Shown here piece by piece: positions 1,330 to 6,099 of a stretch of DNA of 27,657 bases. The notes below the pieces were generated by a model. It searched no databases, was not told where the DNA came from, and saw nothing but the letters and a program-made list of their open reading frames with translations. Within the stretch, counting starts at the first letter, position 1. Every line of letters begins with the position of its first letter. The stretch covers positions 1-27,657 of the forward strand of contig JAQXFJ010000217.1 in NCBI GenBank assembly GCA_029250385.1. Reading direction: 5' to 3'. This stretch comes from Candidatus Poseidoniaceae archaeon (GTDB lineage: Archaea; Thermoplasmatota; Poseidoniia; Poseidoniales; Poseidoniaceae). The position numbers and the translations under genes are program-made.

Positions 1330-2337
1330 ATGGCCGATTCACCGGTATCTACACACAACCCCAACTCTGCTGCACCATCAGATGATGCTTCACCGCAACA
1401 ACAGAAGCAAATGGAAAGCGCTTATGCTAACATGAAGCGTAAAATGTCAATGCAAGAAATTGGTAGAAAAATCAAACACAAAGTGATGGTTTTATCTGGC
1501 AAAGGCGGCGTTGGTAAATCAACTGTTGCAACAGGCTTAGCACTTTCACTAGCTCAAGAAGGTCACTCTGTGGGCATATTAGATATTGACATCACGGGTC
1601 CAAATGTACCAAAGATGATGGGACTTGACCGCAAGAGATTGCATGTTGAACAAGGCAGAATACATCCAGCTCAAGGCCACCTTGGAGTTAAGGTCATATC
1701 GATGGCTTTCCTACTAGAAGATGAAGACACCCCTGTAGTTTGGCGAGGGCCGATAAAACTGGGTGCTATTCAACAATTTATTGGTGATGTTGAGTGGGGT
1801 GAACTTGACTATCTAGTCATCGATTTCCCACCGGGTACCTCTGACGAACCACTTACAGTAGCACAATCATTACCTGATATTGACGGTATGGTTATTGTCA
1901 CAACACCTCAAGATGTGGCACTACTCGATAGTCGTAAATCGATTACCTTCTCTGAATCATTGAAAGTTCCAGTTTTGGGCGTTGTTGAGAACATGAGTGG
2001 CTACACTATATCTGGAAAAACTTCGCCTGATAATGATATTGAAATCGCTGGCCCAGGGGGTAAAAAGCACAAAGCTACAGCTGACTCTGATGGTAATTTC
2101 AACGTGACGCTAGATATCTTCAAACAGGGTGGCGGAAAATCAACTGCAGAAGAGTTTGGTGTACCATTTTTGGGTTCATTACCTTTTGATCCTGGTTTCG
2201 TTAGAGGCGGAGATGATGGAGTACATCGCATTGTTAGCGAACCTGAAGGGGCTTCAGCGATTGCGTTTGCCAAGGTGGTGGAAGCGATAAAATCTCAAAT
2301 CGGGTCATCAGAAAGTCAAGGACTGGAAATTATCTGA
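1330..2337 (+). CDS. mrp: Mrp/ApbC/Nbp35-family P-loop ATPase, cysteine-free variant, 335 aa
   Basis: SGKGGVGKST, DIDITGPNVP, VVWRGP, DYLVIDFPPGTSD, VTTPQDVALLD and GVVENMS motifs. ATG 1330 chosen because the upstream extension overlaps the previous gene. Confidence 0.93.
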   Translation: MADSPVSTHNPNSAAPSDDASPQQQKQMESAYANMKRKMSMQEIGRKIKHKVMVLSGKGGVGKSTVATGLALSLAQEGHSVGILDIDITGPNVPKMMGLDRKRLHVEQGRIHPAQGHLGVKVISMAFLLEDEDTPVVWRGPIKLGAIQQFIGDVEWGELDYLVIDFPPGTSDEPLTVAQSLPDIDGMVIVTTPQDVALLDSRKSITFSESLKVPVLGVVENMSGYTISGKTSPDNDIEIAGPGGKKHKATADSDGNFNVTLDIFKQGGGKSTAEEFGVPFLGSLPFDPGFVRGGDDGVHRIVSEPEGASAIAFAKVVEAIKSQIGSSESQGLEII

Positions 2338-2346
2338 GGTGGGATA

Positions 2347-2697
2347 ATGTCAGATGTTCCAGATTTAACACGGCTTGAAAGACGTGATACAGATATGAAA
2401 TTGACTTACGCTGATGGTGGCGAATTTACGGTAACTTATGATGACTTGAAGCACGCTTGCCCTTGTGCAAAATGTGCACCGCTGCGCAATGATGACGGCA
2501 ATAGTAAAACCCTAAGGAGACAAATAGAAGCAATGGCGCCTGAGAAACCTCAGGTGCGCCCGGTAGGGAAATACGCCTTAGGTTTTGAATGGAAAAACGG
2601 ATGCTCAAGTGGTATTTATCGCTTTGAGCGAATATGGGCTTTGGCTAATAATCAAGATCCAGATAACGGCAAACCCTATGTGCACGGAGCATGGTAA
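2347..2697 (+). CDS. DUF971 / GBBH-like N-terminal domain protein, 116 aa
   Basis: CPCAKC (2458-2475) and VGKYALGFEWKNGCSSGIY, matching the DUF971 pattern VG.YA..i.w.dGh..GIY. SD GAGGTG overlaps the mrp stop. Confidence 0.8.
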   Translation: MSDVPDLTRLERRDTDMKLTYADGGEFTVTYDDLKHACPCAKCAPLRNDDGNSKTLRRQIEAMAPEKPQVRPVGKYALGFEWKNGCSSGIYRFERIWALANNQDPDNGKPYVHGAW

Positions 2698-2780
2698 AGC
2701 CACTAAATGACTTAACAGGCCATAAAACGGCGAGGGTTTGATGTATAGTTGGGCGACCGGTAAATTGGAAGGAACCTATT

Positions 2781-4859
2781 ATGCAGGGAGTTTACCTCAC
2801 TTGGATGATTAGTGCGTTAGCTCTAGGTGTGCTATTACTACCAGTGTTCAAACCCAAATGGATGGAGTTAAAACTAACTACATTTGTTGACTTCTTTCGT
2901 AGATATTGGATTCATATTTTGATTCTATTCATGATCTACAACGCCAAGGATGGATTAGATGAAATTGATAGAATCTTGATGGCCTCAACAGGACTAGATA
3001 TGACGCCTTGGATATATGCCATTGAAGGTAATCTAGTTTTACATGTGCAGCAATATTTTGAAGCGGAATGGCTTACCATAACTCTAACTCATTTTTACGT
3101 TGCAGGGTTCATGTTCATTTGTTATGTTTCAGTATTCTACTTCGCTTACTTCGATGACCGTTGGATGGCTGATAGAATTACTCTAACTATTGCCTGGGTC
3201 TACATCCTAGCCATCCCATTTTACTTGTTCTTCAATGTCCGGGTAACCGGTTCTTATATTCCAGAAATGAAGACTTTAGCCTACTCATTGAATCCAGAAA
3301 TAGCGGATTGGTTCAGGAGAATCGACCCATTTACTAACTGCATGCCGTCGTTACATATCGGCATTCCATACGCCGTTTGGCTATGTATGAAACGTTTTGA
3401 CCATGATGACCGATGGGAATTATATCGCAAGATTGTATTTGCTTATGTTATGTTGACTGCCTTTACCATTATTTATTTGGGAATACACTGGATTTTGGAT
3501 ATTGCAGGGGGAATGATAATTGCCTCAATTGCGGTTAATCTTGCGGATAAAACCTCAAAGCCGATATGGAGCATATTGGATGAGAGAACAATTAATTCTC
3601 GCCTTGTCACAGTTCTTACCAATCCTAAAAAAGCATACAAAATAGTTTCACAAAAGGTTGCTAAATCCGCTAAATCTTTCCTAAAGCCCACTTCCAGAGA
3701 GACAGGCATTATGGCTGTCATTTTGGTAATAATTGTGGCTTCAGTTATCACCTGGGATTTGACACATCAATCACTTTCAGCCAAAGGTGTTGAGGCTCCA
3801 GAAGGAGCTAGTGGCGCAGATGGATGGCTAGCGACCTTAGATAATACCTCTGAATTTGGTGCTGTTCTAAAATTATATGATTTATCAGAACTCGATAAAG
3901 ATGGCATAGAAGTAATTCAACCTAACTTATCGGTTAATTCGATATACCATATTTCAGGTGATAAATTAGTAATGGCTAATGCCACAGATCTGTATGTGAT
4001 TGATGTGACTTCGCCGGAGGAAATATTCTATCAAAAGTCAATTAATGGCATTGAACAAATAGAGATGTGTGACTTAGGTGAATACTATGTGCTACTCACC
4101 TTAGAAGACGGGGCATTGTCTGCAGAGAACCTCGATGGAGAGGCAATTGATCTTTCAATAGATGTCAACAATATCTCTTATGTAAATTGCCAAGGAAATG
4201 ATTTTGCTTACCTTTCAGAAAACTATCCGGACAAGGTTTTCATGAGTAATCTTGAGTTGTCTGGCGCCCTATCCTATCAAATAAATGCTTCAGCAGAAGA
4301 AGAGGTTGAGCAAGTTTTAGCCGATTGGGATACACCAGTTGATATTCAGAATGCCACAATTACCAACATCGTATTTGACAAATCTCACTTACTGGTAAGT
4401 GTCAATGTTTCATCAGTAGATAGAATTGTCTTAGTTGATAGAGAGTCTACGGACTATCGTCTGCTTGGTGACGGTAAATATTCGTCATATGACCCATCAA
4501 TCCGCGACGGTATCGTTGCATGGGCGATGAAAGATCACTTAAATCCATCAAGTCCGATTGAAGAATACTTTGATGGAGAAATATTCTACATGGAAATTGC
4601 TGATAATTTTACCCATGTACTTACCGCAGATGAGGTGGACCAGTGGGGCCCAATAGTTTTGGAAGACCATTTGGTATACTTTGAAGAGTCCAATGATGGG
4701 GTAATAATCCAAGTTCATACTTGGGAGCCTGAGTTAAAGTCATATTCGAATATAATTTTACAATCAGGTTCTGTAATTGGTATCATGCTCGTATTTGCTT
4801 ACATAAATCAAAGGCAAACAGAAATAAAAAATAGTAAATTCCAGTCAGAAGAGGAATAG
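2781..4859 (+). CDS. PAP2_3 / Aur1 (IPC-synthase-like) membrane phosphatase or phosphotransferase fused to an extracellular beta-propeller-like domain, 692 aa
   Basis: Multi-TM N-terminus with NCMPSLHIG and IYLGIHWILD catalytic motifs. About 330-aa acidic beta-rich region with YDPSIRDGIVAW and DQWGPIVLEDHLVY repeats. C-terminal TM helix. Confidence 0.75.
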   Translation: MQGVYLTWMISALALGVLLLPVFKPKWMELKLTTFVDFFRRYWIHILILFMIYNAKDGLDEIDRILMASTGLDMTPWIYAIEGNLVLHVQQYFEAEWLTITLTHFYVAGFMFICYVSVFYFAYFDDRWMADRITLTIAWVYILAIPFYLFFNVRVTGSYIPEMKTLAYSLNPEIADWFRRIDPFTNCMPSLHIGIPYAVWLCMKRFDHDDRWELYRKIVFAYVMLTAFTIIYLGIHWILDIAGGMIIASIAVNLADKTSKPIWSILDERTINSRLVTVLTNPKKAYKIVSQKVAKSAKSFLKPTSRETGIMAVILVIIVASVITWDLTHQSLSAKGVEAPEGASGADGWLATLDNTSEFGAVLKLYDLSELDKDGIEVIQPNLSVNSIYHISGDKLVMANATDLYVIDVTSPEEIFYQKSINGIEQIEMCDLGEYYVLLTLEDGALSAENLDGEAIDLSIDVNNISYVNCQGNDFAYLSENYPDKVFMSNLELSGALSYQINASAEEEVEQVLADWDTPVDIQNATITNIVFDKSHLLVSVNVSSVDRIVLVDRESTDYRLLGDGKYSSYDPSIRDGIVAWAMKDHLNPSSPIEEYFDGEIFYMEIADNFTHVLTADEVDQWGPIVLEDHLVYFEESNDGVIIQVHTWEPELKSYSNIILQSGSVIGIMLVFAYINQRQTEIKNSKFQSEEE

Positions 4860-4860
4860 A

Positions 4861-5979
4861 TTATTTCTTGATACTTAGCATTCTTTCAAGCGCTAGTAAT
4901 GACCCTTCTTCAACAGATTTGGATACACTAATTTGATTCGGTACTTCTCCATCAATAATTCGTTCTAATACATCCATTAAGTAGGCAGGATGAATCATGT
5001 ACATTGTGGAACAAGGACAGACTTTATCATCGAGACATTCAATTATTTTATCAGGATTAGATTCTGCTAACCTAGCAACCATGTTTATTTCAGTGCCAAT
5101 GGCTATTTTTGCGCCTGTGGGCTGTTGTTCAACATAATTTTTGATAAATTGTGTAGAACCATTTGCATCACTGACTTCGACAGTCTCTTTGGGGCATTCG
5201 GGATGGACAACGACAAGTCCATCTGGGTGTCTGTCACGAAATTCTTCTACCTGCTCAACAGTGAACCTTTTGTGCACTGAACAAAAGCCGTGCCATAGAA
5301 TTATTTTGGCATCATTAAGACTCGAATCAGCGCCGATTTTCGGTATCCATGTTGGCATCATTTGTTCACTTATTCCCATCTTTATTCCTGTGTTGCGGCC
5401 AAGGTGTTGATCTGGGAAGAATAACACTGTTCCGTTTGGGCCAGCACGATCAAAGGCCCAATTTAGTATTCCAGTTGCATTGGATGATGTGCAAACTATT
5501 CCACCATGACGTCCAACGAAATCTTTCAAGTCAGCACTACTATTCATGTAGGTTACTGGAATAAGATATGATTTTCCATCAGTGGGGATCTCTCCAGGAG
5601 CAGTTCTATCGATGGGATCGCCAAGTTTTGTTTCAGCTAAAATCTCGGCCCATGCCTCTTCAACATCAACTAATGTTGCCATGTCTGCCATTGAGCACCC
5701 TGCCCTTAAATTTGGGAGAATTACATGTTGTTGTTCATTTGTCAATATGTCAGCAGATTCTGCCATAAAATGAACTCCACAAAATACAATGTATTTGGCA
5801 GTTGAATCTGCGGCTTTTTGACTTAGCATAAAGGAATCACCGATAAAATCAGCGTGCATAACTATGCTGTCTCTCTGGTAGTGATGGCCTAAAATCATCA
5901 AGTCTGAACCGAGTTGTTTCCTTAGTTCAGTAATTCTCTCAGCAATTGCTTGCTCCTCAGGGGAAAGAGAGGTGTCCAT
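4861..5979 (-). CDS. nadA: quinolinate synthase NadA, 372 aa
   Basis: ILGHHYQ, FCGVHFMAE, AGCSMAD, YMNSSA, CTSSNA, PDQHLG, GFCSVH, VHPEC, GTEINM, CPCSTM; three [4Fe-4S] cysteines present. ATG 5979 preferred. Confidence 0.96.
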   Translation of the reverse strand: MDTSLSPEEQAIAERITELRKQLGSDLMILGHHYQRDSIVMHADFIGDSFMLSQKAADSTAKYIVFCGVHFMAESADILTNEQQHVILPNLRAGCSMADMATLVDVEEAWAEILAETKLGDPIDRTAPGEIPTDGKSYLIPVTYMNSSADLKDFVGRHGGIVCTSSNATGILNWAFDRAGPNGTVLFFPDQHLGRNTGIKMGISEQMMPTWIPKIGADSSLNDAKIILWHGFCSVHKRFTVEQVEEFRDRHPDGLVVVHPECPKETVEVSDANGSTQFIKNYVEQQPTGAKIAIGTEINMVARLAESNPDKIIECLDDKVCPCSTMYMIHPAYLMDVLERIIDGEVPNQISVSKSVEEGSLLALERMLSIKK

Positions 5980-6099
5980 GAAATCTATGGAGCACATTGG
6001 CAGGGTAATCGTCATATGCCTCATGATAGCCAACAGTTATCCCTTTTTCAACAATTGTGAGTGCGTGATATACATAAGTAAGGGCATTGAGCGGGACTC

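Follow-up and report, generated by a model that had tools for sequence, protein, structure and literature searches.

A Cys-free Mrp-type ATPase and a four-cysteine DUF971 protein as a candidate two-subunit, HCF101-like system in marine Group II archaea

ATPases of the Mrp/NBP35/ApbC family carry a CxxC motif that bridges an iron–sulfur (Fe-S) cluster in the dimer. How might such an ATPase work when it has no cysteine at all? The question is raised by a 27,657-nucleotide stretch of DNA from a Candidatus Poseidoniaceae archaeon (contig JAQXFJ010000217.1 of assembly GCA_029250385.1; hereafter the window), in which mrp, a gene for a Cys-free Mrp-type ATPase, directly precedes a gene for a small DUF971 protein with four cysteines. 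The nearest named homologues belong to Candidatus Poseidonia and Poseidoniaceae, which are marine Group II archaea. The initial annotation of the window had proposed that the two products form a split counterpart of HCF101, a protein in which an Mrp-type ATPase is followed by a DUF971 domain. We favour, with somewhat better than even confidence, a reading in which a two-gene operon of mrp and the DUF971 gene encodes a two-subunit, HCF101-like Fe-S delivery ATPase. That Mrp and DUF971 are functional partners, in whatever capacity, we consider highly probable. The features concerned are collected in Table 1.

Table 1. Features of the window, in coordinates of the whole 27,657-nucleotide stretch.
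Feature	Coordinates	Strand	Basis
mrp, Mrp/NBP35/ApbC-type P-loop ATPase, 335 aa, no Cys	1330..2337	+	PF10609 at 5e-89, 298 bits
Insert of ~39 residues (224-262) in place of the CxxC loop, between the ENMS and GGG motifs	1999..2115	+	Pfam match breaks at model position 181; alignment with CxxC-type Mrps
Shine-Dalgarno-like GAGGTGGG on the mrp stop codon, 4 nt ahead of the DUF971 ATG	2336..2343	+	Read from the sequence
DUF971 (GBBH-like_N) protein, Cys4 variant, 116 aa	2347..2697	+	PF06155 at 2.1e-15
CxCxxC motif (C38, C40, C43)	2458..2475	+	Codons 2458-2460, 2464-2466, 2473-2475; aligns with BBOX1 CPCSDC and 3LUU CPCAEC
C86, fourth ligand position, mostly His in DUF971 proteins	2602..2604	+	Inside G-C-S-S-G-I-Y
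Stretch under single marine metatranscriptome contigs, apparent bicistronic unit	1338..2786	+	98-99% identity
nadA, quinolinate synthase, [4Fe-4S] enzyme	4861..6033	-	PF02445 at 1.6e-92

The window Mrp has the fold and motifs of the ApbC/Mrp/Nbp35/Cfd1 proteins. Its deviant Walker A (KGGVGKS), switch and Walker B are all present, and the ATPase motifs were invariant in 31 aligned sequences. Scores fell under the NCBIfam equivalog cut-offs for both MrpORP (321 vs 450) and ApbC (206.6 vs 348). The best structural matches of its predicted model were ApbC (8ZKC), Cfd1 (6G2G) and AF2382 (2PH1), followed by the ATPase-type HypB of Thermococcus kodakarensis and HypB complexes with HypA. What sets the window protein apart from these cluster-binding relatives is that the bridging CxxC, expected after the ENMS motif, is absent; as first read, there is no Cys anywhere in its 335 residues. 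At that position CxxC-type Mrps have about 12 residues by alignment, where the window Mrp has the insert, which AlphaFold2 predicted as four beta strands (residues 225-261) with predicted local distance difference test (pLDDT) values of 82-92. Because the CxxC hairpin is replaced by this four-strand insert, the ATPase is, judging from its sequence, unable to ligate a cluster through cysteine.

No second, CxxC-bearing Mrp was found in the source genome, a 75%-complete assembly in which the window protein is the sole Mrp. Across the order the picture is the same: 118 of 121 Poseidoniales genomes had exactly one strong Mrp match, and all 72 orthologues that we read had the insert, no CxxC, and zero or one non-conserved Cys. 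The insert is common to all Poseidoniales and to a further family, which we label f28. An N-terminal extension of Mrp (residues 1-47, window positions 1330-1470), likewise without Cys, consists of about 20 disordered residues and then a long predicted helix (22-47); it is kept in the order and has a different form in f28.

The DUF971 protein matched its profile at 57.6 bits (cut-off 22.8) over positions 2-83 of 85, and is the only DUF971 protein in the same 75%-complete assembly. Its cysteines are limited to C38, C40, C43 and C86, which were invariant across 12 diverse Poseidoniales sequences. The initial annotation had picked out CPCAKC together with a Cys in GCSSGIY, which the codon positions and this invariance bear out, and had stated that the latter position is usually His. 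That is correct: by alignment, the column of C86 holds His in human BBOX1 (His82) as well as in three solved DUF971 structures (3LUU, 2L6N and 2L6P). When 1.84 billion representatives were searched with a profile, 1547 DUF971 matches were returned; among the best 150, 118 were complete and had their ligands read, and this biased set held 90 Cys3His and 28 Cys4 sites.

Alignment with human BBOX1 (gamma-butyrobetaine hydroxylase) equates its own C38, C40 and C43 with the triad and places the fourth position within D80-E81-H82. We take these three cysteines and H82 to be the Zn ligands of BBOX1, a numbering with which our alignment agrees. The D-x-H motif is absent from the window protein, in which Cys86 has no Asp two residues earlier. 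An Asp at that spacing preceded ligand 4 in 88 of 90 His-type representatives, in 1 of 28 Cys-type representatives and in 1 of 119 readable chlamydial fusions (described below). Since the Asp covaries with His and is lost with Cys, in the way that a second-shell Asp–His pair would be, the pattern argues that position 86 ligates the same metal site in both types; Cys86 is a variant of the site and not a ground for exclusion from the DUF971 family. The AlphaFold2 model (pLDDT 83.8) had its best Protein Data Bank (PDB) matches in 3LUU (template modelling score 0.71 on target) and the BBOX1 N-domain. By these comparisons the four cysteines are a Cys4 version of the Cys3His mononuclear site in the DUF971/BBOX1 N-domain fold. 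BBOX1 shares the fold and the ligand positions (CxCxxC plus position 82), but differs in its fourth ligand, a His with Asp two residues earlier, and in the fusion of the domain to a 2-oxoglutarate dioxygenase. We know of no link between the BBOX1 N-terminal domain and Mrp.

Coupling of the two genes is tight. The mrp stop codon (TGA, 2335-2337) is overlapped by a GAGGTG motif (2336-2341), and the DUF971 ATG lies 9 nt past the stop, at 2347. The overlap of ribosome-binding motif and stop codon had been spotted at the outset, and it recurs: in family f1, from which we collected 53 pairs in 7 genera, the gap is 8-12 nt in 52 and a GAGG-type motif sits on the stop in 43. Contigs drawn from four marine metatranscriptome runs matched the region, and single ones crossed from mrp into the DUF971 gene, in run X1 at 1342-2786 (flanked by adapter on either side), in X2 at 1338-2459 and in X3 at 1377-2581, stopping at the outer limits of the two genes; positions 900-1330 had no metatranscriptome contig cover. 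This fits a bicistronic, nearly leaderless mRNA, assembled RNA-library contigs being no proof of a single molecule.

Both genes occur throughout the order. We found DUF971, always of the Cys4 type, in 38 of 41 relatives, among which all 19 high-quality genomes had it; in a sample of the phylum, Cys4 DUF971 occurred in 46 of 47 f1 and 23 of 23 f3 genomes. Adjacency of the pair is confined, within Poseidoniales, to f1, so that the conservation on which the initial annotation had staked its proposal holds across the order for the genes and only in f1 for their linkage. In f3 (L034:2-1824; L029; L031) an MMPL/RND-type membrane gene lies upstream, its stop overlapped or abutted by the start of DUF971; Pus10 follows, and no Fe-S context was apparent around DUF971 at these three loci. 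The C-terminal tail of DUF971 (residues 104-116, window 2656-2694) ends P-Y-V-H-G-A-W, is kept in f1 and f2 and is missing in f3; it could be a docking peptide, and its model is unconfident (pLDDT <50 for residues 113-116). Two relatives deviate. In a single-contig genome (G041:C1:1777267-1778570) the Mrp match ends at residue 296 of a 317-aa open frame and the DUF971 match begins about 160 nt later, not 9, which may reflect a frameshift or a local rearrangement; another DUF971 gene (L011, G014:C144:10175-10522) has an in-frame TGA at about codon 26, which may be a sequencing error or mark a broken copy.

How close is this pair to HCF101? In the Arabidopsis plastid protein, in that of Toxoplasma and in prokaryotic DUF59-Mrp-DUF971 fusions, the order is likewise an Mrp-type ATPase and then DUF971, and the plant protein also lacks a classical CxxC. 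Plant HCF101 binds a [4Fe-4S] cluster and requires Cys128, Cys347 and Cys419 (PMC5890173); its DUF971 domain has no Cys motif (PMC7980591), and the function of DUF971 has been termed undefined (PMC11838916). The window differs in having two genes, with DUF59 on neither (a stand-alone 105-aa DUF59 open reading frame lies on another contig), in an ATPase that belongs to the Thermoplasmatota Mrp clade and has no Cys, whereas the plant protein uses the three just named, and in a DUF971 protein that is Cys4, unlike the plant domain.

True fusions do occur close by. Within Thermoplasmatota, PF06155 was found only in Poseidoniales, in 7 of 8 genomes of f4, a family belonging to the same class, and in one genome of family f32. 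In f4 and f32, DUF971 is the C-terminal domain of DUF59-Mrp-DUF971 proteins of about 455-470 aa, the true HCF101 architecture; NCBI names these proteins only as Poseidoniia archaeon P-loop NTPase. In the Mrp tree the insert-type proteins of Poseidoniales and f28 fell among the CxxC-type Thermoplasmatota Mrps (support 99), and the fused f4/f32 clade (95), a planctomycete clade and a chlamydial clade (100 for the separation) stood apart from the window type. With the insert columns removed, a single Poseidoniales plus f28 Mrp clade was not rejected (P value of the approximately unbiased test, p-AU, 0.58). Because the ATPase branches among Thermoplasmatota Mrps and not in the fused clade, the pair is not a broken HCF101 gene, and we rejected fission of an HCF101-type gene as its origin. 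The proposal of a split HCF101-like system stands as regards gene order, coupling and the existence of fusions in a sister family, and falls as regards descent: apparently, an insert displaced the CxxC of an archaeal Mrp, and in one family its gene came to stand ahead of a DUF971 gene. The f4 fused genes look like a separate bacterial-type module with Nfu alongside. At one f4 locus (G163:C11:76992-80298) a NifU/Nfu-domain gene closely trails the fusion on the same strand.

The initial annotation had also proposed to test whether loss of CxxC goes together with a Cys4 DUF971 next door. A metagenome scan with CPCAxC[VRI][DN]E-type DUF971 gave 80 loci, 16 of them with DUF971 fused or adjacent to Mrp; all 16 ATPases kept CxxC, and the fourth ligand was His in 15 of 15 readable cases. 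Adding five fusions from f4 and one from f32, His accompanied a retained CxxC in 21 of 21 readable linked pairs, one more fusion being unreadable. Among linked pairs that had lost CxxC, the fourth ligand was Cys in f1 (53 pairs) and in Chlamydiota (120 fusions and 3 split pairs), and was missing from both fusions of the f4 genus g24, from which CxxC and His are both gone. No discordant pair was found among the fused or adjacent pairs examined. With Cys expected to occupy ligand 4 at a base rate of roughly 0.1-0.2 (7/80 planctomycete sequences; 28/118 in the biased set), it is unlikely, as a rough estimate and not a test, that all three CxxC-less lineages left His by chance. Some His-type stand-alone DUF971 proteins that cluster with fused ones (P0174, P0246, P0155) were considered as further Mrp-linked cases and rejected, there being no Mrp adjoining; another, P0191, lies on a contig too short to show its neighbours.

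The chlamydial proteins supply a second instance. We found 120 Mrp-DUF971 fusions, 43-53% identical to one representative, some of them named Chlamydiae or Waddliaceae by NCBI, and with no annotation beyond iron-sulfur cluster carrier protein or P-loop NTPase; one chlamydia-like contig also carries an ATP/ADP translocase. CxxC was absent from 120 of 120, and DUF971 was Cys4 in the 119 readable ones. The four DUF971 cysteines were the sole invariant cysteines of the set, no ATPase Cys exceeding 58%. Three split pairs have overlapping or near-abutting genes, and their Mrps lack CxxC too. These proteins share with the window a CxxC-less Mrp combined with a Cys4 DUF971, but the ATPase is of an unrelated bacterial lineage, its CxxC loop is merely degenerate, with no beta insert, and the genes lie upstream of a ZnuA/ABC/DtxR-type metal importer. 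On the chlamydia-like contigs concerned (L253:2643-7026; L254:1241-5474; the contig of P0222), the mrp-DUF971 unit, fused or split, immediately precedes a ZnuA / ABC ATPase / ABC-3 permease operon; on contigs that extend far enough, the permease also bears a fused DtxR-type repressor domain, and the whole resembles a ytgABCD-like metal importer.

The mechanism that we propose for the window pair is as follows. The ATPase subunit descends from an ordinary archaeal CxxC-type Mrp whose dimer-interface CxxC hairpin was replaced by the insert, leaving the DUF971 subunit with the pair's only conserved cysteines. The ATP-bound Mrp dimer may bind DUF971 much as HypB binds HypA in Thermococcus. The ATPase would then act as a nucleotide switch, and the cargo, a cluster or iron, would be held in trans by a Cys-bearing partner: DUF971 here, and perhaps an A-type carrier in f28. 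We infer the physical interaction, the identity of the cargo and its location alike. The co-variation in linked pairs, together with the four DUF971 cysteines being the only conserved ones in two unrelated lineages, suggests that the metal site is functionally tied to cargo handling, a proposition to which we give an even chance. That DUF971 itself ligates an Fe-S cluster is plausible but less likely than not, its probability kept down by the absence of DUF971 from f28, by Mrp-linked DUF971 proteins that lack the triad, by the mononuclear geometry of the site and by the null result in Planctomycetota. Equally tentative is the broader idea that cargo-holding moved from an Mrp-type ATPase to a separate DUF971 Cys4 site, acting singly or bridged across the two copies of a dimer-bound pair, in two unrelated ATPase lineages, those of marine Group II archaea and Chlamydiota.

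Several results weigh against the delivery-ATPase reading. The first is family f28. Each of its 13 genomes encodes just one Mrp, which is of the insert type and lacks CxxC (48-52% identity across residues 31-320), and none of the 13 has a DUF971 gene, whether by PF06155 or by a broad profile; a Cys-free ATPase of this kind does not, then, need DUF971. At 8 of the 13 f28 loci (L232, L233, L236, L239-L243) mrp has an A-type Fe-S carrier gene (PF01521) downstream on its own strand, at distances of 68-110, about 300 or about 375 bp in four and of 1.5 kb or more in the other four. The A-type carrier, a small Fe-S protein with cysteines, takes the place in f28 that DUF971 holds in f1, a point in favour of a partner in trans.

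The second is that the co-variation comprises only two or three independent contrasts on the tree, from which a sign test cannot reach significance. The His/Cys switch is frequent, with at least five changes among the 71 sequences of the DUF971 tree. A single clade of all Cys4 sequences was rejected on that tree (p-AU 0.026), and one uniting Poseidoniales and chlamydial DUF971 was not (p-AU 0.75), so that these two Cys4 lineages may share an origin, though their ATPases clearly do not. In Planctomycetota, where DUF971 never lay within 6 kb of Mrp (80 loci) and was Cys4 in 7 of 80, no association between CxxC and Cys4 was found: the Mrp loops were CxxC in 4 and CPDN in 2 of the Cys4 genomes, with none lacking Cys, and CxxC in 3, CPDN in 5 and devoid of Cys in 1 of the His genomes. 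The co-variation is thus seen in fused and adjacent pairs and was not seen in Planctomycetota, where the genes are unlinked. Many of the planctomycete Mrps (L196, L199-L201, L203, L205, L206, L208) carry CPDN in place of CxxC, the second Cys being lost, and one has no loop Cys; degenerate CxxC loops may be commoner than assumed. One planctomycete genome (L230, G384:C58) encodes a DUF971-TauD-like dioxygenase fusion, the BBOX1 architecture, beside a stand-alone DUF971.

The third concerns DUF971 proteins without the triad. In Shewanella and Pseudomonas a stand-alone DUF971 protein has been called, from fitness data, an FeS cluster maintenance protein (Price et al., bioRxiv 10.1101/072470). Like the window protein it is small, separate and functionally tied to Mrp, but it lacks CxCxxC and keeps the His (2L6N, 2L6P); plant HCF101 likewise does without the triad and yet is tied to Mrp function. 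Added to this, the window ligands correspond to a mononuclear tetrahedral site, which fits a [4Fe-4S] cluster poorly unless rearranged, and mrp and the DUF971 gene are not linked in f2 or f3, where two assemblies, of 1 and 5 contigs, place them 127-134 kb from each other. Structures of IscU carry Zn at the cluster site, and by that precedent finding Zn in a protein once it is purified or crystallised is not enough to exclude an Fe-S role.

Much of this would be expected if DUF971 were only an adaptor or regulator of Mrp, with Cys4 a structural Zn site and a neutral variant of Cys3His, and with clusters carried by other proteins (the A-type carrier, Nfu-like or DUF59/SufT-like proteins) or the Cys-free Mrp carrying none. 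We regard this as a serious possibility, at about one chance in three. The site is homologous to that of BBOX1 and 3LUU, the His-to-Cys switches are scattered as well as frequent, triad-less proteins remain tied to Mrp, f28 manages without DUF971, Planctomycetota show no association, and the source genome does have genes for an A-type carrier, a stand-alone DUF59 protein and NifU-like proteins. An adaptor role leaves unexplained, however, why ligand 4 changed exactly in the linked CxxC-less lineages and never in the 21 linked CxxC pairs, and why the DUF971 four are the only invariant cysteines in 120 chlamydial fusions.

The likeness of the Mrp model to HypB brings in a second alternative. The T. 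kodakarensis HypB, an Mrp/MinD ATPase, lacks a Ni site; in the presence of ATP it assembles with HypA, whose Cys4 site binds Zn, into a 2:2 complex in which a nanomolar Ni site is created (PMC7055735). The arrangement (PDB 5AUN) resembles the window pair in joining an Mrp/MinD-family dimer that lacks a metal site to a small Cys4 partner, but the partner there is HypA, whose fold is not that of DUF971, and the cargo is Ni for hydrogenase, so that the analogy is mechanistic only. The window pair could by the same logic be a chaperone for a single Fe, Zn or Ni ion, held by DUF971 and released under the gating of the ATPase, for which the Cys4 geometry would be apt and with which the position of the chlamydia-like unit directly upstream of a metal importer would agree. 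We think this improbable. On the tree the ATPase falls with the CxxC-type Thermoplasmatota Mrps, and its identity to ApbC/Cfd1 is 34-38% against 28-30% to HypB; it is the only Mrp in each genome; DUF971 is cofit with Fe-S maintenance genes; and in f28 the same place is filled by an Fe-S carrier. Finally, that the adjacency is inherited gene order and the two products work independently is very improbable: the genes are indeed unlinked in f2 and f3, where DUF971 sits between an MMPL-type gene and Pus10 in a context that is uninformative, but 7 genera preserve the spacing of 8-12 nt and the Shine-Dalgarno-like motif at the stop, single RNA-library contigs cross both genes, the two domains are fused in archaea, bacteria and eukaryotes, and cofitness has been reported.

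If cargo-holding has moved to DUF971, this would provide the first biochemical function for DUF971, and hence for the C-terminal domain of HCF101; publications have linked DUF971 to HCF101 since 2004, with no known function. Models of Mrp/NBP35 proteins would need a second architecture if the Cys4 site carries cargo, one in which the ATPase is the clamp and the ligands are provided in trans. The Poseidoniales rank among the commonest archaea of ocean surface waters, and the one Mrp-type ATPase that they have is unable to bind a cluster in the canonical manner. The split pair, the chlamydial single chain, f28 without DUF971 and the CxxC/His fusions together make a comparative panel for the role of DUF971.

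A nearby Fe-S protein in the window is NadA, which the initial annotation had put forward as a client of the pair. Its proximity is conserved, which is not evidence of a client relation. In 5 of 5 f1 genomes the distance between nadA and mrp is about 3 kb or less, and in one f3 genome it is 82 bp; two other f3 genomes and two f28 genomes yielded no nadA. The gene is convergent with mrp in the window and in the f3 genome with the 82-bp gap, and on the same strand as mrp in genome G045.

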